Shown: piece after piece, positions 3,601-44,363 of the stretch | How the letters are laid out: every line of letters starts with the position of its first letter | Position numbering within the stretch: the stretch's first letter is position 1 | IMG/VR virus record: IMGVR_UViG_2534681673_000008 | Location: 1 to 44,363 of that record | DNA from: a virus | Taxonomy: Duplodnaviria > Heunggongvirae > Uroviricota > Caudoviricetes | Length of the DNA stretch: 44,363 nucleotides | Direction: 5' to 3' (one strand) | Notes under the pieces: model-generated | Told to the model about the DNA's origin: nothing | The model's database searches: none | What the model saw: the letters and a program-made list of their open reading frames with translations, nothing else | Position numbers and translations under genes: made by a program

Positions 3601-4043
3601 GCCGCATGGGTTGCCGCCTCACGGGCTGATGTGCTGGCATCACTGGCTGACTTCTTCGCGGCTGCCGTGTTCTGTGCCACCGCGGACGCGTTACGCGCCA
3701 CCTCTTCCACCATCAGTTCAAAACGGCGCAGTGCCTCCGGACGGGCATCATCCTCCGTCATGGCACCGAGAAAATCATTCAGCGTACCGGGTTGAGAATC
3801 TTCATACACGGTAATGGTCCCGGCATGTGACGGCGGGAATCCTTCCACCAACAGAATAACGCTGTACTGACCGTACTCAACGTCCATGCTGTAACGCCCG
3901 GCTTCATCCGGATTTTCTGAGGCCAGCGTGTTCACCACCACCGTGGTGCTGTTACGTTTTGCTTTCAGCTGGATTGTGCAGTTCTGTACCGGTTTTCCTG
4001 TGCCGTCTTTCAGTACACCTGAAATCTTTACTGCCATATTCAC
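639..4043 (-). CDS. stf: Side tail fiber protein (lambda Stf-like, 1134 aa) with expanded Ala/Ser-rich repeats and C-terminal HxH motifs
   Basis: N-terminus [26 protein letters not shown] matches lambda Stf; C-terminal His-x-His repeats as in T4 gp37-type fiber tips. Confidence 0.9.
2650..3700 (-). repeat. In-frame low-complexity tandem repeat region inside stf (repeated AAKTSETNA / SSASSA units)
   Basis: Repeated Ala/Ser/Thr-rich peptide units in the stf translation; generates long spurious ORFs in other frames. Confidence 0.6.
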
Positions 4044-4767: not shown

Positions 4768-8169
<3,402 letters not shown>

Positions 8170-25879: not shown

Positions 25880-26977
25880 ATGAAAAAATTAACAGTGGCA
25901 ATTTCTGCTGTAGCTGCATCAGTACTGATGGCGATGTCTGCTCAGGCAGCTGAAATTTATAATAAAGACAGTAACAAGCTGGATCTGTACGGGAAAGTTA
26001 ATGCCAAGCACTACTTCTCCTCTAATGATGCAGATGATGGTGATACTACTTATGCCCGTCTTGGCTTCAAAGGTGAAACCCAAATCAACGATCAACTGAC
26101 TGGTTTCGGTCAGTGGGAATATGAATTCAAAGGCAACCGCGCTGAATCTCAAGGTTCCTCCAAAGACAAAACCCGTCTTGCATTTGCAGGCCTGAAATTC
26201 GGTGACTACGGCTCAATCGATTACGGCCGTAACTACGGTGTAGCATACGACATCGGTGCGTGGACTGACGTTCTGCCAGAATTCGGTGGCGATACCTGGA
26301 CCCAAACAGATGTGTTCATGACTGGTCGCACCACTGGTGTTGCAACCTATCGTAACAACGACTTCTTTGGTCTGGTTGATGGTCTGAACTTTGCTGCTCA
26401 GTACCAAGGCAAAAACGATCGTAGCGATTTCGATAACTACACTGAAGGTAACGGTGATGGCTTCGGTTTCTCTGCTACCTATGAATACGAAGGATTCGGT
26501 ATCGGTGCAACTTATGCGAAATCTGATCGTACCGACACTCAAGTTAATGCAGGGAAAGTTCTTCCTGAAGTATTTGCTTCCGGTAAAAATGCAGAAGTTT
26601 GGGCCGCAGGTCTGAAATATGACGCTAACAACATTTACCTGGCCACTACCTATTCTGAAACCCAGAATATGACTGTATTTGCTGATCACTTCGTTGCTAA
26701 TAAAGCCCAAAACTTCGAAGCTGTTGCACAATATCAGTTCGATTTCGGTCTGCGTCCGTCCGTTGCTTACCTGCAATCTAAAGGTAAAGATCTTGGAGTA
26801 TGGGGCGATCAGGACTTAGTCAAATATGTTGATGTAGGTGCAACCTATTACTTCAACAAAAATATGTCTACTTTCGTTGATTACAAAATCAACCTGCTTG
26901 ACAAAAATGACTTCACTAAAGCACTCGGTGTAAGCACTGATGACATCGTTGCTGTAGGTCTGGTTTACCAGTTCTAA
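25880..26977 (+). CDS. nmpC: Outer membrane porin, OmpC/NmpC/Lc family (365 aa), prophage moron between Q and S
   Basis: Signal peptide, porin beta-barrel composition and C-terminal F; AT-rich upstream region with OmpR-box-like sequence. Confidence 0.9.
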
Positions 26978-28422: not shown

Positions 28423-28585
28423 GATTCCTCCTTGCTGCCAGTCGCAACCATTTTTTATCAACCAGGCTAGCGGTATATCCGAGCAGTGTTGGTATTTCGG
28501 ATGGCTTCGGCTCAGGCTTACGCTTACGACGATTTGATACTCTGTAGATGTGTCCGTTCATGACACGAATAAGCGGTGTAGCCAT
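28415..28585 (-). CDS. ninE: NinE (56 aa)
   Basis: Hand-translated [35 protein letters not shown]...; ATG overlaps ybcN stop (TAATG). Confidence 0.7.
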   Translation of the reverse strand: MATPLIRVMNGHIYRVSNRRKRKPEPKPSEIPTLLGYTASLVDKKWLRLAARRNHG

Positions 28586-29040
28586 TACGCCTCCTGCTTG
28601 TCACGGAGCAGCTGGAACTCGCAGCTCTGCGGAATAGTCAGGTGGCAGCCAATATTCACCGCCCAGGCTTCAACCTTACACAGGAAGACATACATCTCTC
28701 CGGTATCAAGATCGGAGGTATGGCGTAACGACTGGATAGTGGTGATATCACCGGTTACGACATCAACCAGGTCTTTGGTTTCATAACCGAGATATGTGTG
28801 TTTGAGAGCATCTTTTACCCAAGCTGGAGTGGCGAACGTTTTACCCCTGTTGATGAGGTATTCACTGATTTCGCTGTACCACATGTGGCTGAGTGCATTC
28901 TGGGAAAGACTGCGTTTCTCACGCCACGGTTTAAGCACCATGCGAAAGCATTTGCCCTCCTCCAGATAAGGCTGGATCTGCCGACCGATAGCGGTGAAGT
29001 TACCGCGATGTAATTTGATGCCATCTTGTGGGAGATTCAC
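28585..29040 (-). CDS. ybcN: YbcN-like nin-region protein (151 aa)
   Basis: Length and sequence match DLP12 YbcN. Confidence 0.85.
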
Positions 29041-29236
29041 GCTTCACCTCCGCAGAGGTCAAACGCTGGATGCAAAAAATCGCAGGTGCATCTCTGCATC
29101 TGTGAAGGGAGAAGAGAGTTTGGATTGTATGTGCGCATAAACGTCCCCGTTTAGCGCAGAAGTCACCGGAGTTGTTCAGGCTCCGATGACATGATTATGG
29201 CAAAATGATTATGTAAAATCAAAAGCCAAAAAACAA

Positions 29237-30166
29237 TTATGGTTTATTTTCTAGCTCTGATTTTTTGAAAGCTTCTATCAGACGATTAGCATCTTCTGTA
29301 CCACCAGGAAGCACGTTTGATTTTTTAAGAATATACGGTGGGAACTTTGTGGTTAAATATTCATGCTTAAACCATCTACGAAACTCTGACAATGCAGAAT
29401 CAGGATAGGCATTAATGATCTGAGGATTGGAACTTGCCTGAAGAAAATCTTCAGGGTAATAATGCTCACAGTCTACTCTTTCTCCAAATTCTGTTGCTAA
29501 CCCCTTTGCTTTCCAGTGACGCGCCCAGCAAGAACCAACACTGCCATCAGGTACGGTATGCTGATTAATCGCTAATCCAGCATTGATGAGATCTACCATC
29601 ATACCTGCAATTTCATTAAATATAATGAAATACCCATCAGGTATGGTTCCCTTATCTTTTAATAAAGATACTCTGTCATGGTAATGCCTCCACGGGTCCT
29701 CCGGTTGATATTTTAGCGCCTCGTATATAAATGTCTTGAGGCCTTTTTTAGCAAGCTCTCTGTAAGATCTAATTGCAGTCTCACTTTCTGCTTGTTTTGC
29801 TTCAAAGGCATAGTATTCAAGTATAGCCATGCATACAACATCTGGATAAGCATGGTACTCAACACCATTTCGAATTATTGGTATATAAAGTTTTTCATCT
29901 GTAAAACCTTCATTAAGAAGATATGTACCAATAAAAGTCATTCTTCCTTTTTTGAAAATACCGTTCTCAACGGATTGAGCCCACTCATCGGTAATTTCCT
30001 TGATTCGCAAACGCTGAACACCACAAACATTTGCCAACCCATTCTGAGTAAGGTACGGAATTCCGTTATCGAGTACCCCCATTTCTATACCGTTAATGAC
30101 AGCCTCTTGCTTAACATCTAAGTCTAAAGGTATGGATCTGAGGGAGGTAGTTCTCTGTTGTGCCAT
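29237..30166 (-). CDS. Hypothetical protein with KilA-N/Bro-N-like N-terminal domain; candidate BstA-like abortive-infection protein (309 aa from ATG at 30164-30166)
   Basis: Pattern GVLDNGIPYLTQNGLANVCGV resembles KilA-N; AT-rich gene in the nin-region hotspot where K-12 DLP12 has ybcL/ybcM. Confidence 0.55.
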   Translation of the reverse strand: MAQQRTTSLRSIPLDLDVKQEAVINGIEMGVLDNGIPYLTQNGLANVCGVQRLRIKEITDEWAQSVENGIFKKGRMTFIGTYLLNEGFTDEKLYIPIIRNGVEYHAYPDVVCMAILEYYAFEAKQAESETAIRSYRELAKKGLKTFIYEALKYQPEDPWRHYHDRVSLLKDKGTIPDGYFIIFNEIAGMMVDLINAGLAINQHTVPDGSVGSCWARHWKAKGLATEFGERVDCEHYYPEDFLQASSNPQIINAYPDSALSEFRRWFKHEYLTTKFPPYILKKSNVLPGGTEDANRLIEAFKKSELENKP

Positions 30167-30370
30167 TTTTGATCCTATCAATTTGAATTCATTGAAAAAA
30201 TTAGGTGTTCCCTATGCATTAGAACACTCATCATAGTAACCCCACTCGTTTGTGAAAAAAACTAATTTCACAATCAGTTAACTCTCAAAATAACTGATAT
30301 TCATACTCTCGCTATCCCATATATAGACATCCTTGTTTTAATACAACACTCATGGCTGGCGGCTATACTC

Positions 30371-30688
30371 CTAACAGATTTGACGCAAATACGGCAATAC
30401 TCGACTCCACTTATCATCCTGCCACGGCTGAAGTTTTACATGTGCCGTTTCTCGGACGAGGATTGCTCGCGCTCTGTTGAGTATCTGGGGATATTCTTGC
30501 TCGATGGAAGTGAAGTGACCAGCTTCACCATGCTCCGCATCCTGAAGAAGATGAGTAACGTTCTGGTAGGCAATTAACATCACATTCCCTGCTCGCCATA
30601 ACCAGGCGAGTGTGCAAAGTTCGTTATCAGTGAATTGTTTTGTGATTGGGGATTGTTGAACTGCTAGAACGAGAACGCCAGCATCCAT
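30371..30688 (-). CDS. Hypothetical protein (105 aa) in a short GC-richer island; possibly a gene remnant
   Basis: ORF only; no recognisable motif. Confidence 0.3.
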   Translation of the reverse strand: MDAGVLVLAVQQSPITKQFTDNELCTLAWLWRAGNVMLIAYQNVTHLLQDAEHGEAGHFTSIEQEYPQILNRARAILVRETAHVKLQPWQDDKWSRVLPYLRQIC

Positions 30689-30799: not shown

Positions 30800-32326
30800 T
30801 CAAAAATAAACCTCACCATCAACCATATATTTGAGAGTACTTATCGCCTGCTGGGCGGATATTGTTTTCATTAAAGGATAGTGTTTAAAAACAATGCCAT
30901 TCATAAAATAGATATCACAGGTTTTATTATCTGTATTGATTATGATTTTTTCGAATGTTTTATAGGCAAGTGTACGACATAGCTCTCGCCCATTTTTACT
31001 GGTTAAGTCAATAGCATGAAAATCACCAAGTGAGCTCACCGCTTTACTCTTCAAAGTTTTTAATGATACAGAAGCCCTTCGTAATTCCTTATCTAATACT
31101 CTGATTTTTTCTGCTATAGCGGTAACTTCAGGCGCAACAGATAATGCAGCAATTAAATTATTAATTTTCATCTGGAGCTCAATAATTTTCAACTCTAAAG
31201 TTTCATTAGCATCTTTCTTGTTTTCAACTGGTTGGATTTTACTACAATTAAAAAGCAACTCATTAATGATATTATAATCAACCAAATCTCTCTTTATTGA
31301 TGGCCTGTCACATCGATGCAGTCTTCTCATCGGACAAACATAATAGCCATGCAAACTTCCAGATACCGCATGAACAATCATGGTATTACCACAAGCCTCG
31401 CACTTCATAACTGTTCGAAGTAGATTTATCAACATAGGGTTTTTGCTACTATTGCTAATACCAAAAGGTGCCAACCGAATTTCCTGCACAGCGTAAAACA
31501 AATCATCTGATATGACTCTGGGATAATAGCCAGCGATTTCACTTATTCCTTTACCTCTTGCACGATATGAAGGTACGCATATACCTATCAGAGCTTTATT
31601 CGCTAATAATTTTTCAATTACAGAAGGTCCCCATGCACTTTCTTTTCCTGAGAAATTCTTTACAGCATGATCATTTAAATACTTGGCTATTGCATTCAAT
31701 GAGCGCCTTTCCATCCTGAGTTTAAAAATTAGCTCAATAGTTTTCACCCTGTCGGGGTCTGGAACAAAAGCCGTTCTTTTGTCATCTAAGGAGAGCCATC
31801 TCGGACAAGACGCCGTCATAATCGTGCCTGACTCCAGTGCATCCTGCCGTTTTTTCTTCCATGATAATTTAACCCGACTTGACTTTATCTCGCTTTCTTC
31901 ATTTGCCCTTTGTGCTATAAGTATGGCTTTTATTAATGAATATGGATCATTCAAAGAGTCAATATTATAGACTGTATTATCGCAAAGAGTTATAACATCA
32001 ATACCGTGATTCAAAATCAATTTCAGACGCTCAATCGCTTCACCGACTTTTTCTCTTGAAAGTCTGTCCAGACTTTCAACTAACAATGTAGTTCCTGGCA
32101 ATATATAACCATGCTCTATAGCATCTAAAAATTCCGAAAAAGCTCCTGATTGTGCATGCTTTCCTTTGAATGCACTTAATCCTAAATCTTCATATGTTAT
32201 GGTATCAAGATAATAATCACTATTTACCTTTAACCATTCAGCAATAAGTCTTCTCTGTCGGTTTAATGAGTCGCCAGACATCTGACCTGGTGATGAAAAT
32301 CGCATATATGCTATGGCTTTTTTCAT
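30800..32326 (-). CDS. ybcK: Large serine recombinase (YbcK-like, 508 aa)
   Basis: N-terminal resolvase catalytic motif AIAYMRFSSPGQ, recombinase domain and Cys-rich zinc-ribbon region. Confidence 0.85.
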   Translation of the reverse strand: MKKAIAYMRFSSPGQMSGDSLNRQRRLIAEWLKVNSDYYLDTITYEDLGLSAFKGKHAQSGAFSEFLDAIEHGYILPGTTLLVESLDRLSREKVGEAIERLKLILNHGIDVITLCDNTVYNIDSLNDPYSLIKAILIAQRANEESEIKSSRVKLSWKKKRQDALESGTIMTASCPRWLSLDDKRTAFVPDPDRVKTIELIFKLRMERRSLNAIAKYLNDHAVKNFSGKESAWGPSVIEKLLANKALIGICVPSYRARGKGISEIAGYYPRVISDDLFYAVQEIRLAPFGISNSSKNPMLINLLRTVMKCEACGNTMIVHAVSGSLHGYYVCPMRRLHRCDRPSIKRDLVDYNIINELLFNCSKIQPVENKKDANETLELKIIELQMKINNLIAALSVAPEVTAIAEKIRVLDKELRRASVSLKTLKSKAVSSLGDFHAIDLTSKNGRELCRTLAYKTFEKIIINTDNKTCDIYFMNGIVFKHYPLMKTISAQQAISTLKYMVDGEVYF

Positions 32327-35836: not shown

Positions 35837-35939
35837 AACAACCTCCGTGGTTAATTTGAATCAAGATTAAAACTATGGTTGTTTTAGTCAACAACCATTT
35901 TCGTTTGATGAAATAAAACCTTGGTTGTACATTTGGACT
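35837..35939. promoter_or_regulatory. Right operator/promoter region (oR, PR/PRM) with pseudo-palindrome TAAAACTATGGTTGTTTTA at 35868-35886
   Basis: Divergent repressor/cro arrangement; operator core TAAAACAAC recurs here and in the oL region. Confidence 0.6.
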
Positions 35940-36629
35940 ATGAAAACAACACTCTCAGAAAGACTTAAAGAAGCCAGATTAGCGCGAGGCCTTACACAAA
36001 AGGCGCTTGGGGATTTGGTCGGGGTTAGCCAAGCTGCTATTCAGAAAATCGAAACAGGGAAAGCTAATCAAACAACTAAAATCGTGGAGATCGCGAACGC
36101 TTTGGGTGTGCGCGCAGAATGGTTATCTTCTGGCGTTGGAAATATGTCAGACAGTACAGTGCAACCAATACAATCAACTGTCAGCCATTCCAAATACTTC
36201 AAGATTGACGTTCTTGATATAGAAGTCAGTGCTGGGCCGGGAGTCATCAACCGTGAGTTTGTAGAAGTTCTACGCTCGGTTGAGTACTCGTTTGACGATG
36301 CTCGTCATATGTTCGATGGTAGGAAGGCGGAAAATATCCGCATCATTAACGTGCGTGGTGACAGCATGTCAGGAACGATCGAACCAGGTGATCTGCTGTT
36401 CGTTGATATCACAGTTAAATCTTTCGACGGTGATGGTATCTATGCGTTTCTGTACGACGACACAGCCCATGTAAAGCGCCTGCAAATGATGAAGGATAAG
36501 CTGCTGGTCATCTCTGATAACAAAAGCTACTCACCGTGGGACCCGATCGAGAAAGACGAGATGAACCGGGTGTTCATCTTCGGTAAGGTTATTGGGAGCA
36601 TGCCGCAGACATATAGGAAGCATGGGTAG
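35940..36629 (+). CDS. cI: CI-type repressor (N-terminal HTH, C-terminal S24 LexA-like autopeptidase), non-lambda immunity
   Basis: HTH LTQKALGDLVGVSQAAIQKIETGK; S24 motifs GDSM (Ser) and HVKRL (Lys); ORF track begins at an upstream TTG (35925). Confidence 0.85.
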   Translation: MKTTLSERLKEARLARGLTQKALGDLVGVSQAAIQKIETGKANQTTKIVEIANALGVRAEWLSSGVGNMSDSTVQPIQSTVSHSKYFKIDVLDIEVSAGPGVINREFVEVLRSVEYSFDDARHMFDGRKAENIRIINVRGDSMSGTIEPGDLLFVDITVKSFDGDGIYAFLYDDTAHVKRLQMMKDKLLVISDNKSYSPWDPIEKDEMNRVFIFGKVIGSMPQTYRKHG

Positions 36630-36750
36630 TACCAATTAAAAATTATCAACTGGGCATTGTGCTCATTCAGTAAAGAACTAATTCCTATCTTTGCTCTAGG
36701 TAGTAATATTAAGCCACCGCAATAATATCTTTACCTAACGGCGTAAGAAT

Positions 36751-36778
36751 CCCGGTCACCGTGCCGGGTTTTCTTTTG
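36751..36778 (+). terminator. Rho-independent terminator after the repressor gene
   Basis: CCCGG-TCACCGTG-CCGGG followed by TTTTCTTTT. Confidence 0.65.
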
Positions 36779-36889
36779 CCCTCCCCTCATCACACACACC
36801 GTTAAAAAAACCACCATAACCTCGCTTCAGTTATCGCTATGCGATTCAAGTCACAAAATAAATCCATCCTAAATACAACCAGTTATATC

Positions 36890-36947
36890 TAAAACAACCA
36901 ATAAAACAACTTTTGTTGTTGACGGTAAAACAACTATAGTTTTAAAT
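36890..36947 (+). promoter_or_regulatory. Left operator/promoter (oL/pL): three direct TAAAACAAC operator cores (36890, 36902, 36926) overlapping -35 TTGACG (36919-36924) and -10 TTAAAT (36942-36947)
   Basis: Sigma70-like hexamers with 17-bp spacer; operator core shared with oR. Confidence 0.55.
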
Positions 36948-37140
36948 AAGTTCATCGCAACAACACAACGATACGGCAACCACCTGATTCACCGTTGCGA
37001 TGACCGCTTAGATCCGCAGTTTGAATTTCAGCAGGCTTCGGGGAGTGCGAGGGGTGAAACGGACGCGTGAACGTCGGTGTGACCAGCTGAAATCAACTCA
37101 ACATTTCATACCTTAGTCGCTTCAACGAGGCGGCTTAGTT

Positions 37141-39271: not shown

Positions 39272-39426
39272 AGCATCCTCACGATAATATCCGGGTAGGC
39301 GCGATCACTTTCATCTACTCCATTACAAAGCGAGGCTGGGTATTTCCCGGCCTTTCTGTTATCAGAAATCCACTGAAAGCACAGCGGCTGGCTGAGAAGA
39401 TAAATAATAAACAGGAGGATATATGA
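39268..39426 (+). CDS. Orf60a-like small protein (52 aa); start overlaps exo stop and stop overlaps the next start
   Basis: Hand-translated [52 protein letters not shown] resembles lambda orf60a. Confidence 0.6.
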
Positions 39427-40487
39427 GTCAGGTTGGTAATCATTCATTCGAATTTCCGGCATCGCAAGGTGTACAGGGTGGTACTGTTACACTCTTCCTT
39501 ACCATACCAGGAAGATCGCTGGCTCGTTTCCTCGCTTCAGATAATTACGGCCATACACTGGCACGCTCTCAGCGAGAAATTAATCCAAATCGAGTACGAA
39601 AATTTTTAAATTATCTCACTAACGCAGACTCAAGAAATGAGCCTTTTATCATTCCCCCTCTCGTAGGTAACTGTGATTCGAATATAGAATTTGTACCGTT
39701 TGGCAACACAAATGTTGGTATAGCCAGAATTCCCCTCGACGCCGAAATAAAACTTTTTGATGGTCAACATCGTGCAGCTGGCATTGAGATATTTTGCCGA
39801 AGTTCCCCATCAACGCTCATGGTTCCCATGATGCTTACAATGAATCTGCCGCTAAAAACCCGGCAGCAGTTCTTTTCGGACATAAATAACAACGTTTCTA
39901 AGCCATCAGCGACCATCAATATGGCGTATAACGGCCGGGATGATATTGCTCAGGGAATGATATCCTTCCTGACCCAACATACTGTATTTGCCGATATAAC
40001 CGATTTTGAACACAACGTAGTGCCATTAAAAAGTAATATGTGGGTGAGTTTCAAGGCACTCACTGATGCAACGTCAAAGTTCGCCAGGAACGGCAATCAA
40101 CAACTTGAAATGGGATATATAGAATCTGTCTGGGAGGCATGGATTACACTAACTCAGATTGACTCAATCCGACATGGTGTACACCACGCTACGTACAAGC
40201 GCGATTATATTCAGTTCCATGGAGTAATGATTAACGCTTTCGGTTTTGCGGTTCAACAGATGATGGTTAATCATTCCATCGCAGAAATAACTTCTATGAT
40301 CGAAAAACTATGTGCAACTACCAGCTCTGCAGAAAGAGAGGATTTTTTTCTGATGGATAACTGGGCGGGGATCTGCACGAAAGCCAGCCAGGAAAAACTA
40401 TCTGTTATTGCCAATGTGGCAGCGCAGAAAGCAGCAGCAAACAGACTGATACAAGCTTTTACCAAAGGAAGTCTGGAATCAACTTAA
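39423..40487 (+). CDS. DGQHR-domain protein (DndB-like / ParB-Srx fold, 354 aa) in the accessory slot downstream of exo
   Basis: Hallmark motif FDGQHRAAGIE at about residue 104; size typical of DndB family; AGGAGG Shine-Dalgarno and ATGA overlap with orf60a. Confidence 0.7.
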   Translation: MSQVGNHSFEFPASQGVQGGTVTLFLTIPGRSLARFLASDNYGHTLARSQREINPNRVRKFLNYLTNADSRNEPFIIPPLVGNCDSNIEFVPFGNTNVGIARIPLDAEIKLFDGQHRAAGIEIFCRSSPSTLMVPMMLTMNLPLKTRQQFFSDINNNVSKPSATINMAYNGRDDIAQGMISFLTQHTVFADITDFEHNVVPLKSNMWVSFKALTDATSKFARNGNQQLEMGYIESVWEAWITLTQIDSIRHGVHHATYKRDYIQFHGVMINAFGFAVQQMMVNHSIAEITSMIEKLCATTSSAEREDFFLMDNWAGICTKASQEKLSVIANVAAQKAAANRLIQAFTKGSLEST

Positions 40488-42385: not shown

Positions 42386-42586
42386 ATGCAACACGAACTA
42401 CAGCCTGATTCCCTGGTTGATTTGAAATTCATCATGGCTGATACTGGCTTTGGTAAAACCTTCATCTACGACCGGATTAAGTCCGGCGACCTGCCAAAAG
42501 CCAAAGTTATCCACGGGCGAGCAAGATGGTTATATCGTGACCATTGTGAATTCAAAAATAAGCTCTTAAGCCGCGCCAATGGGTAA
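42386..42586 (+). CDS. torI: Excisionase / recombination directionality factor, TorI(AlpA)-type (66 aa)
   Basis: Matches remembered KpLE1 TorI (MQHELQPDSLVDLKFIMADTGFGKTFIYDRI...); last prophage gene before the att core. Confidence 0.8.
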   Translation: MQHELQPDSLVDLKFIMADTGFGKTFIYDRIKSGDLPKAKVIHGRARWLYRDHCEFKNKLLSRANG

Positions 42587-42659
42587 AATAGCGGGTAAAA
42601 TATTTCTCACACCTAAAAAACACCATTCCAATCAATCCCCTGCCGCTTCAAGTAGATGT

Positions 42660-42674
42660 CTGCAGGGGACACCA
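42660..42674 (+). other. att core: 15-nt copy of the 3-prime end of tRNA-Arg (argW type), CTGCAGGGGACACCA; not a complete tRNA
   Basis: Matches remembered argW 3-prime end only; upstream sequence does not form the rest of a tRNA. Confidence 0.5.
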
Positions 42675-43115
42675 GATACCCTTCAAACGAAATCTACCTT
42701 CACCCCGTAAAAGATGGGTTTGGCAGCACACTTGCCTTATATCTACTCATTTTTACTGCAACAGGTTGAAATCTCAGCACTGTCAGAAAGCGCTGATGAC
42801 TAAACAGCCCTGGGCCGGGCGATGTAACCATCACACAGAATCCTGATAGCGAAATATGGCGTGACTCGATACTTCACTCCGCAATGCATTCCTTGATGAA
42901 TTCGCAGGACCGTGATACACGGGACAGGTCACTGAATGACGACAATGTCCTGGAAATCAGCGAACCGCGCATCTGAAGTACATTTGAGCGACTGTACCAG
43001 AACATGAATGAGGCGTTTGGATTAGGCGATTATTAGCAGGGCTAAGCATTTTACTATTATTATTTTCCGGTTGAGGGATATAGAGCTATCGACAACAACC
43101 GGAAAAAGTTTACGT

Positions 43116-44363
43116 CTATATTGCTGAAGGTACAGGCGTTTCCATAACTATTTGCTCGCGTTTTTTACTCAAGAAGAAAATGCCAAATAGCAACATCAGG
43201 CAGACAATACCCGAAATTGCGAAGAAAACTGTCTGGTAGCCTGCGTGGTCAAAGAGTATCCCAGTCGGCGTTGAAAGCAGCACAATCCCAAGCGAACTGG
43301 CAATTTGAAAACCAATCAGAAAGATCGTCGACGACAGGCGCTTATCAAAGTTTGCCACGCTGTATTTGAAGACGGATATGACACAAAGTGGAACCTCAAT
43401 GGCATGTAACAACTTCACTAATGAAATAATCCAGGGGTTAACGAACAGCGCGCAGGAAAGGATACGCAACGCCATAATCACAACTCCGATAAGTAATGCA
43501 TTTTTTGGCCCTACCCGATTCACAAAGAAAGGAATAATCGCCATGCACAGCGCTTCGAGTACCACCTGGAATGAGTTGAGATAACCATACAGGCGCGTTC
43601 CTACATCGTGTGATTCGAATAAACCTGCATAAAAGACAGGAAAAAGTTGTTGATCAAAAATGTTATAGAAAGACCACGTCCCCACAATAAATATGACGAA
43701 AACCCAGAAGTTTCGATCCTTGAAAACTGCGATAAAATCCTCTTTTTTTACCCCTCCCGCATCTGCCGCTACGCACTGGTGATCCTTATCTTTAAAACGC
43801 ATGTTGATCATCATAAATACAGCGCCAAATAGCGAGACCAACCAGAAGTTGATATGGGGACTGATACTAAAAAATATGCCGGCAAAGAACGCGCCAATAG
43901 CATAGCCAAAAGATCCCCAGGCGCGCGCTGTTCCATATTCGAAATGAAAATTTCGCGCCATTTTTTCGGTGAAGCTATCAAGCAAACCGCATCCCGCCAG
44001 ATACCCCAAGCCAAAAAATAGCGCCCCCAGAATTAGACCTACAGAAAAATTGCTTTGCAGTAACGGTTCATAAACGTAAATCATAAACGGTCCGGTCAAG
44101 ACCAGGATGAAACTCATACACCAGATGAGCGGTTTCTTCAGACCGAGTTTATCCTGAACGATGCCGTAGAACATCATAAATAGAATGCTGGTAAACTGGT
44201 TGACCGAATAAAGTGTACCTAATTCCGTCCCTGTCAACCCTAGATGTCCTTTCAGCCAAATAGCGTATAACGACCACCACAGCGACCAGGAAATAAAAAA
44301 GAGAAATGAGTAACTGGATGCAAAACGATAGTACGCATTTCTGAATGGAATATTCAGTGCCAT
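43116..44363 (-). CDS. cscB: Sucrose permease CscB (LacY-family oligosaccharide:H+ symporter, 415 aa); host gene flanking the prophage
   Basis: Matches remembered CscB (MALNIPFRNAYYRFASSYSFLFF...); 12-TM MFS protein; start codon is the last three bases of the window. Confidence 0.9.
   Translation of the reverse strand: MALNIPFRNAYYRFASSYSFLFFISWSLWWSLYAIWLKGHLGLTGTELGTLYSVNQFTSILFMMFYGIVQDKLGLKKPLIWCMSFILVLTGPFMIYVYEPLLQSNFSVGLILGALFFGLGYLAGCGLLDSFTEKMARNFHFEYGTARAWGSFGYAIGAFFAGIFFSISPHINFWLVSLFGAVFMMINMRFKDKDHQCVAADAGGVKKEDFIAVFKDRNFWVFVIFIVGTWSFYNIFDQQLFPVFYAGLFESHDVGTRLYGYLNSFQVVLEALCMAIIPFFVNRVGPKNALLIGVVIMALRILSCALFVNPWIISLVKLLHAIEVPLCVISVFKYSVANFDKRLSSTIFLIGFQIASSLGIVLLSTPTGILFDHAGYQTVFFAISGIVCLMLLFGIFFLSKKREQIVMETPVPSAI

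Follow-up and report, generated by a model that had tools for sequence, protein, structure and literature searches.

The bstA locus and its cargo module

The window analysed here is the whole 44,363-nucleotide stretch of virus record IMGVR_UViG_2534681673_000008. It contains a near-complete lambdoid prophage with an S24-domain repressor gene, cro, a YdaT-like gene, O, P, Q and the lysis, terminase, head and tail genes. Encoded within this prophage, at 29237..30166 on the minus strand, is an intact, AT-rich open reading frame (ORF) of 309 codons, exactly as the first-pass annotation had claimed, which is called bstA below. The gene is flanked by ybcN (28585..29040) and by ybcK (30800..32326), which encodes a 508-aa serine recombinase. 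Annotation and BLAST both bear out the earlier assignment of this position to the slot that holds ybcL and ybcM in K-12 DLP12. The features of the locus are as follows (positions are those of the window).

29237..30166, minus strand: bstA coding sequence (ORF listing; ATG start, 309 aa plus stop)
30173..30176, minus strand: ribosome-binding site AGGA, 7-10 nt 5' of the ATG (sequence reading)
29225..30372, minus strand: bstA cargo module, comprising 205 bp of upstream DNA, the gene and 12 bp downstream (BLAST breakpoints)
30371..30688, minus strand: 105-aa ORF with a P22AR_C domain (Pfam P22_AR_C, E 7.7e-14; PHROG 7640 over the full length)

The ATG is taken as the start of bstA because the same 930-bp coding sequence is annotated by RefSeq in identical copies, because the AGGA is suitably positioned and because the BLASTP alignment of the window protein with BstA of Salmonella prophage BTP1 begins at residues 3/4. 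An AAGGA stands at the equivalent place in the BTP1 locus and in the Ec-type locus of E. coli 2012C-4431, which is taken as BstA-Ec type by having the same 897-bp match length and genomic layout as NCTC10963. An alternative in-frame TTG at 30181 in the ORF listing would add five residues (314 aa). The peptide quoted in the first-pass annotation, GVLDNGIPYLTQNGLANVCGV, corresponds to residues 30-50 of the 309-aa protein.

Every gene from cro to Q is encoded on the minus strand of the window, and bstA is therefore co-directional with the early-right operon. In the identical region of E. coli GE3, the gene order is O, P, ren, emrE, ylcJ, ybcK, the 105-aa P22AR_C ORF, the 309-aa gene, a ylcH-like ORF, ybcN, ninE, ybcO, rusA, ylcG and quuD, followed by a porin gene on the opposite strand and then by the lysis, terminase, head and tail genes. 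The porin gene of the window (nmpC type, 365 aa, 25880..26977, plus strand) is intact; its K-12 DLP12 homologue is interrupted by IS5. No intrinsic terminator was found directly after bstA, and the nearest terminator-like site (29098..29081) lies in DNA shared with K-12.

The limits of the cargo module were read from homology breakpoints. Relative to K-12, BLAST places these at 29224 and 30761. Other E. coli prophages carry a P22AR_C gene that is 98.7% identical to that of the window, with identity ending at ~30373. Since identity with K-12 resumes at 29224 and identity with the other prophages stops at ~30373, the mobile unit corresponds to 29225..30372. In SCU-102 (locus L093, 2537..3319, minus strand), the slot between the P22AR_C gene and the ylcH-like ORF is filled by a different gene of 260 aa. 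The product of this gene has no Pfam or PADLOC match and, judged by its slot, is a candidate uncharacterised defence or cargo protein.

The P22AR_C ORF itself, which lies between bstA and the recombinase gene and had been omitted from the first-pass annotation, was considered as an obligatory partner of bstA and rejected. In E. coli NCTC8623, an internal stop makes it a pseudogene next to an intact bstA; the BTP1, Ec-type and Morganella bstA loci lack it, and in different prophages it adjoins different, unrelated cargo genes.

The base composition of bstA (39.0% GC, 30.6% GC3) is low relative to the whole window (50.4%) and to the ybcN..rusA segment (50.9%). The first-pass annotation had taken this as a sign of recent acquisition of the gene. 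The low GC content stands, but the upstream neighbours ybcK (36.2% GC) and emrE (41.4% GC) are equally AT-rich, so the signal marks the whole emrE-ybcK-bstA cargo stretch and is not specific to bstA.

Within the nin region, bstA occupies the interval between ybcK and ybcN, ~5.8 kb from the S24-type cI-like repressor gene (35925..36629) and not directly downstream of it. A position directly downstream of the repressor gene is common but not universal in bstA prophages (Owen et al., 2021, PMC8585504). In E. coli GE3 (locus L001, 16474..18075), this usual bstA slot directly after the cI-like repressor gene holds a 1.6-kb SIR2-family gene. The GE3 SIR2 gene is absent from the window, where the corresponding interval (36630..37140) contains no ORF of at least 60 aa. 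Elsewhere in the window, a gene at 39423..40487 (plus strand) encodes a 354-aa DndB/DGQHR-domain protein (Pfam DndB, E 5.1e-46; PADLOC DndB, E 4.7e-37); its neighbours are exo-side genes on one flank and a TraR-like gene on the other, and the vicinity contains no further dnd genes.

At the right end of the prophage (42386..44363), a torI-like excisionase gene adjoins a LacY/CscB-type permease gene of the sucrose (csc) locus; the window itself contains no integrase or tRNA gene. In E. coli GE3, the same bstA module is found in a prophage at tRNA-Arg (argU). The module is thus common to prophages at different sites, being located beside csc here and at argU in GE3. The presence of bstA in lambda-like prophages at the tRNA-Arg hotspot of E. 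coli has been described previously (Hochhauser et al., 2023).

Family membership and domain layout

Every sequence criterion applied places the 309-aa gene in the BstA family. The PADLOC BstA model PDLC02356 matches residues 10-304 over profile positions 5-291 of 292 (E 3.6e-121), and PHROG 6287 ('BstA abortive infection system, replication inhibitor') matches residues 5-308 over positions 2-303 of 304 (E 1.8e-136). BLASTP aligns the window protein end to end with BstA-BTP1 (40% identity, E 5e-77) and with the BstA-Ec-type protein (38% identity). It is also identical at all 309 residues to WP_000068668.1 of E. coli NCTC8623, whose locus (LR134234, 4557005..4557922) appears among the 72 homologues tabulated in the founding study (Table S1; Owen et al., 2021, PMC8585504). 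The proposal of a BstA-type abortive-infection gene made in the first-pass annotation, for which an HMM comparison with BstA had been suggested, is therefore supported by full-length profile matches as well as by these identities. Membership was already established, since the founding dataset includes the identical protein and the gene is recognised by current defence-finder models. Scans of the 309-aa protein with Pfam and NCBIfam returned no significant family because the model sets used predate or lack BstA_C. The Pfam BstA_C domain (PF26567) is precomputed for the identical protein cluster P0001 and for the full-length homologues among those listed.

A search of a large protein database yields 1,250 homologues at E <=1e-5. 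The allele itself is present at an identity of at least 99% in about 104-110 of 5,426 complete E. coli genomes (~2%) and is always chromosomal. Disrupted copies occur in H1 (NZ_CM146014.1) and H63 (NZ_AP038225.1), one of them interrupted by IS3 and the other partial, and a truncated form of 187 aa constitutes protein cluster P0039, with 54 member sequences. Comparison with relatives gives a pN of 0.10-0.20 against a saturated pS of 0.79-0.89, and the resulting pN/pS of 0.12-0.23 indicates purifying selection. All 63 residues that are invariant in the clade (38-sequence alignment) are present in the window protein.

The protein has two parts, which map to the window as follows.

29717..30118, minus strand: putative N-terminal DNA-binding domain, ~residues 17-150 (KilA-N-like per the literature)
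29240..29701, minus strand: C-terminal BstA_C domain, ~residues 156-309 (Pfam PF26567 via cluster P0001)

The BstA_C domain contains many invariant residues, among them P206, D207, S209, V210, G211, W214, W218, H235, P238, S246, N247, P248 and Q249. An AlphaFold2 model built on the 38-sequence alignment has a mean pLDDT of 80.6. In this model, residues 18-122 of the N-terminal part (pLDDT ~85-94) form three strands, three helices, a hairpin and a helix, and the C-terminal part is mostly helical. A Foldseek search of the model against the PDB returned nothing significant, and no solved structure there resembles the C-terminal domain.

The N-terminal domain of the window protein likely binds DNA. 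A match to a PADLOC 'HTH' model (E 2e-8) agrees with this, and the BFVD viral fold library returns matches of marginal E-value to Bro, KilA-N and antirepressor proteins. The similarity to KilA-N that the first-pass annotation had proposed could not be reproduced at the level of sequence profiles. None of the 38 clade members has a Pfam match to KilA-N (PF04383), the only matches being marginal ones to Phage_CII, HTH_Crp_2 and HTH_3. Comparison of the BstA clade profile by hhalign is not significant either against the single P1 KilA sequence or against a 26-sequence profile of P1-type KilA-N domains (probability 0.15%); the non-significant alignment pairs the same strand-strand-helix stretch that had been noticed in the first-pass annotation. 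A KilA-N-like N-terminus of BstA is a published statement of remote homology (Owen et al., 2021, PMC8585504). The KilA-N label for this domain is tentative and derives from this statement and from weak structural matches of the model.

Predicted aba half-sites and their spacing across the family

The aba element of BTP1 is a DNA element of 63 bp that runs from 29 bp upstream of bstA through the first 34 bp of the gene. Both of its terminal CCCGCC direct repeats are required, single-base changes in a repeat abolishing function, and it acts as DNA, in trans and at high copy number (Owen et al., 2021, PMC8585504). BstA-Ec and BstA-Kp have cognate aba elements of their own, that of BstA-Ec being somewhere in its locus (PMC8585504). 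In the window, a pair of direct-repeat half-sites straddling the bstA start codon is predicted to be the cognate aba of this gene.

30145..30213, minus strand: predicted aba element, 69 bp, with two direct-repeat half-sites 57 bp apart start to start
30202..30213, minus strand: predicted upstream aba half-site AGGGAACACCTA (matrix rank 4 of 88,704 window positions)
30145..30156, minus strand: predicted downstream aba half-site AGAGAACTACCT, in codons 4-8 of bstA (matrix rank 1 of 88,704)

The ranks were obtained with a weight matrix built from ten half-sites of relatives only, with the window sites left out, and scored on 88,704 window positions. The pattern AGRGAAC(N)ACCT occurs only twice in the window, at the two half-sites, a count that is circular because the pattern was derived from them. 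The half-sites are imperfect copies of each other, matching at 7 of 12 positions ungapped or at 10 of 11 positions when a 1-nt shift in their 3' parts is allowed. A search for exact or ungapped repeats in the window alone finds no convincing aba-like pair, and an offset of 56/57 does not rise above background there, which is why the prediction depends on the relatives. The repeats AAGGTACGGA/AAGGTATGGA (spacing 77) and TGAAAAAA (spacing 60), which are also present in the window, were judged to be chance matches. The anti-BstA-like repeat that the first-pass annotation had envisaged inside the gene is thus present as a predicted element, though one that spans the start codon and lies only partly within the gene.

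The corresponding half-sites of five relatives, ordered by protein identity to the window protein, are listed below.

L086, 86% identity: upstream AGAGAACACCCT, downstream AGAGAACGGGCT
L087, 76% identity: upstream AGGGAACACCCT, downstream AGAGATCACCCT
L007 (Xenorhabdus), 75% identity: upstream AGGGAACACCCT, downstream AGAGATCACCCT
L006 (Lonsdalea), 74% identity: upstream GGGGAACCCCCT, downstream AGAGATCGCCCT
L088 (Morganella), 69% identity: upstream GGGGAACAACCA, downstream AGAGATCCACCA

In all six clade members (the window and these relatives), the half-sites are exactly 57 bp apart, and the ATG shifts within the AT-rich spacer (-29 to -50). The half-sites accompany bstA in three prophage contexts: the nin region, next to the repressor gene and near baseplate genes. 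Retention of the pair despite saturated synonymous sites and differing prophage contexts points to function. An Rfam scan and single-strand folding of the aba region gave no match and no unusual structure, which fits a site in duplex DNA. Two of the relatives additionally have a degenerate third half-site, TAGGGAACAGTT directly 5' of AGGGAACACCCT in L087 (~1055-1090) and AGGGAATATGAG directly 5' of GGGGAACCCCCT in L006 (~3920-3955).

Spacing was then analysed across the family, using 80 bstA loci taken from genomes and three taken from assemblies of close relatives, in addition to the BTP1 and Ec-type loci. Among exact repeats on either side of the start codon, start-to-start spacings of 56 bp (19 cases) and 57 bp (27 cases) predominate; other spacings are mostly represented by one or two cases, with a maximum of four. 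A second test used a mismatch-tolerant score that is independent of the position of the repeat relative to the start codon and covered offsets from 30 to 90. By this score, the offset of 56/57 beats all others in 43 of 85 loci, as against 1.8% of shuffled controls. The repeats at these 43 loci are 6-16 nt long and comprise 42 different sequences. CACC or CCGGCCACC is present in many repeats of the family. The clade with at least 47% identity to the window protein typically has a spacing of 57 bp, and the BTP1-like clade one of 56 bp. In BTP1, CCCGCCA is found at -28/+28 (56 bp). In the Ec-type locus (L003, E. coli 2012C-4431, minus strand, ~6700-6775), ATCCCT is found at -34/+23, 57 bp apart, and these repeats are predicted to be the aba of the BstA-Ec type.

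These data lead us to propose, with confidence only slightly better than even, that paired half-sites 56-57 bp apart across the start codon constitute aba throughout the BstA family, with a locus-specific sequence and a fixed spacing. Neither the founding paper nor later papers in the searchable literature were found to state this 56/57-bp rule. If the rule holds, the half-sites would form a readable specificity code for cognate self-immunity, BstA would recognise two sites ~5.4 helical turns apart, and the cognate aba of further homologues, including BstA-Ec, could be read from sequence as 56/57-bp repeats around the start codon. The half-sites also provide defined oligonucleotides for binding and rescue assays, by which silencing of BstA by aba becomes directly testable. 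The predicted aba of this allele and the family-wide rule are what the present analysis adds.

Proposed mode of action and comparison with known systems

The best explanation of the locus is that a near-complete lambdoid prophage very probably carries, as cargo, the gene for a BstA-family abortive-infection protein, together with a predicted aba element for self-immunity. Tested BstA proteins occur in lysogens, move to phage DNA that is being replicated and keep phage DNA from accumulating; they protect at the level of the population and leave lysogenisation unaffected (Owen et al., 2021, PMC8585504). Homologues only ~40% identical to one another defend against phages among P22, 9NA, lambda, phi80, P1 and T7 (PMC8585504), and BstA-BTP1 blocks lambda, phi80, P1 and T7 in E. 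coli (Owen et al., 2021, PMC8585504).

If the window BstA behaves like the homologues that have been tested, it would be produced in the lysogen. Once lytic replication of a foreign phage begins, the protein would gather at the replicating phage DNA and block replication, so that the infected cell would yield no progeny and the population would be protected. The prophage replicates via lambda-type O/P and lambda is sensitive to BstA, and the prophage should therefore need self-immunity. On induction, its own replication would amplify the 69-bp element at 30145..30213, and this would neutralise the cognate BstA, probably through direct binding of aba by the N-terminal DNA-binding domain. Direct binding between BstA and aba was not established in the founding study (Owen et al., 2021, PMC8585504).

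Because bstA lies away from the repressor gene, its expression in the lysogen cannot come from the repressor promoter and is not assured. A consensus scan of the upstream DNA gives one candidate for a promoter of its own.

30230..30258, minus strand: candidate own promoter TTTTCA-17 nt-TATGAT (9/12 matches)

This candidate lies 64 nt 5' of the ATG, in a region where promoter-like sites are no more frequent in the scan than expected by chance. A transcript from it would start ~10 nt 5' of the upstream half-site, which would then occupy ~+10 to +21. Such an arrangement, if the promoter is real, would speculatively allow bstA to be autoregulated. Under the family-wide rule, with the upstream half-site just 3' of the candidate promoter, the contacts that mediate self-immunity could be the same ones that autoregulate bstA in the nin region.

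The uncertainty over expression gives room for a first rival explanation, namely that the protein is an intact but functionally retired BstA, either silent in the nin region, where PR is repressed in the lysogen, or left with a decayed aba. A retired copy would give no defence or would poison the induction of its own prophage. The non-canonical location, away from the highly transcribed repressor operon, and a promoter-like site that does not rise above chance are both consistent with silence, although the module brings its own 205-bp upstream DNA with a ribosome-binding site and half-sites. Decay of aba is suggested by the imperfect half-sites, and since single-base changes in the repeats abolish the BTP1 aba, the degenerate window pair could be inactive; the same two sites nevertheless rank first and fourth among matches to the motif of the relatives in 44 kb. 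Disrupted copies are on record in some E. coli (the 187-aa truncated form, P0039, and IS3-interrupted ones), but the window ORF is full length, keeps all clade-invariant residues, shows strong purifying selection and belongs to an allele that is nearly unchanged in more than 100 genomes. Retirement of this copy is accordingly regarded as improbable. Still less credible is an antirepressor or regulator of KilA-N/Bro-N plus KilAC/P22AR type, acting on prophage repression and perhaps split with the P22AR_C ORF: that ORF immediately precedes the gene on the same strand, the N-terminal domain resembles a DNA-binding one and the marginal BFVD matches include antirepressor, Bro and KilA-N folds, but by Pfam the 309-aa protein has no ANT, KilAC or P22AR_C domain and its C-terminal half is BstA_C, and the P22AR_C ORF belongs to a small-protein PHROG of its own, sits beside unrelated cargo in other prophages, can be a pseudogene next to an intact bstA and is missing from other bstA loci. 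The Ant/KilAC identity, which the first-pass annotation had named as a finding that would overturn its proposal, is rejected, as the P22AR_C domain at the locus belongs to the adjacent 105-aa ORF.

The reading as a prophage-borne BstA abortive-infection gene with a predicted cognate aba places the locus among several known systems. Most of the records listed carry the RefSeq label 'hypothetical protein'; the gene can safely be called bstA, a prophage defence gene. Lambda RexAB and the SIR2-type cargo defences are likewise prophage-encoded abortive-infection systems in mosaic cargo slots, whereas their proteins and mechanism are unrelated to BstA. To our knowledge, no DNA-based self-immunity element is known for lambda RexAB or for other prophage cargo defences of this kind.

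Within the family, BstA-Ec of E. coli NCTC10963 resembles the window protein (38% identity) and also comes from an E. coli lambdoid prophage, but it belongs to another clade and its gene is located just after a LexA-family repressor gene. Both defence and a cognate aba have been demonstrated for it (Owen et al., 2021, PMC8585504). BstA of Salmonella prophage BTP1 (STMMW_03531) shares with the window protein its two-domain layout, its prophage location and its length (307 vs 309 aa), as well as direct repeats that straddle the start codon, spaced by 56 bp (CCCGCCA) in BTP1 and by 57 bp in the window. The two loci differ in that BTP1 bstA is directly downstream of cI, whereas the window gene lies in the nin region with upstream DNA of its own, and in that the window repeats (AGRGAAC..CCT) are imperfect. 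Their sequence differs from that of BTP1, as expected for cognate specificity. The closest counterpart is E. coli NCTC8623, which encodes the identical protein among the same neighbours (ybcK, P22AR_C, bstA, the ylcH-like ORF and ybcN) and differs in the internal stop of its P22AR_C ORF and in its late region, the window prophage being the one that lies beside the csc sucrose locus.
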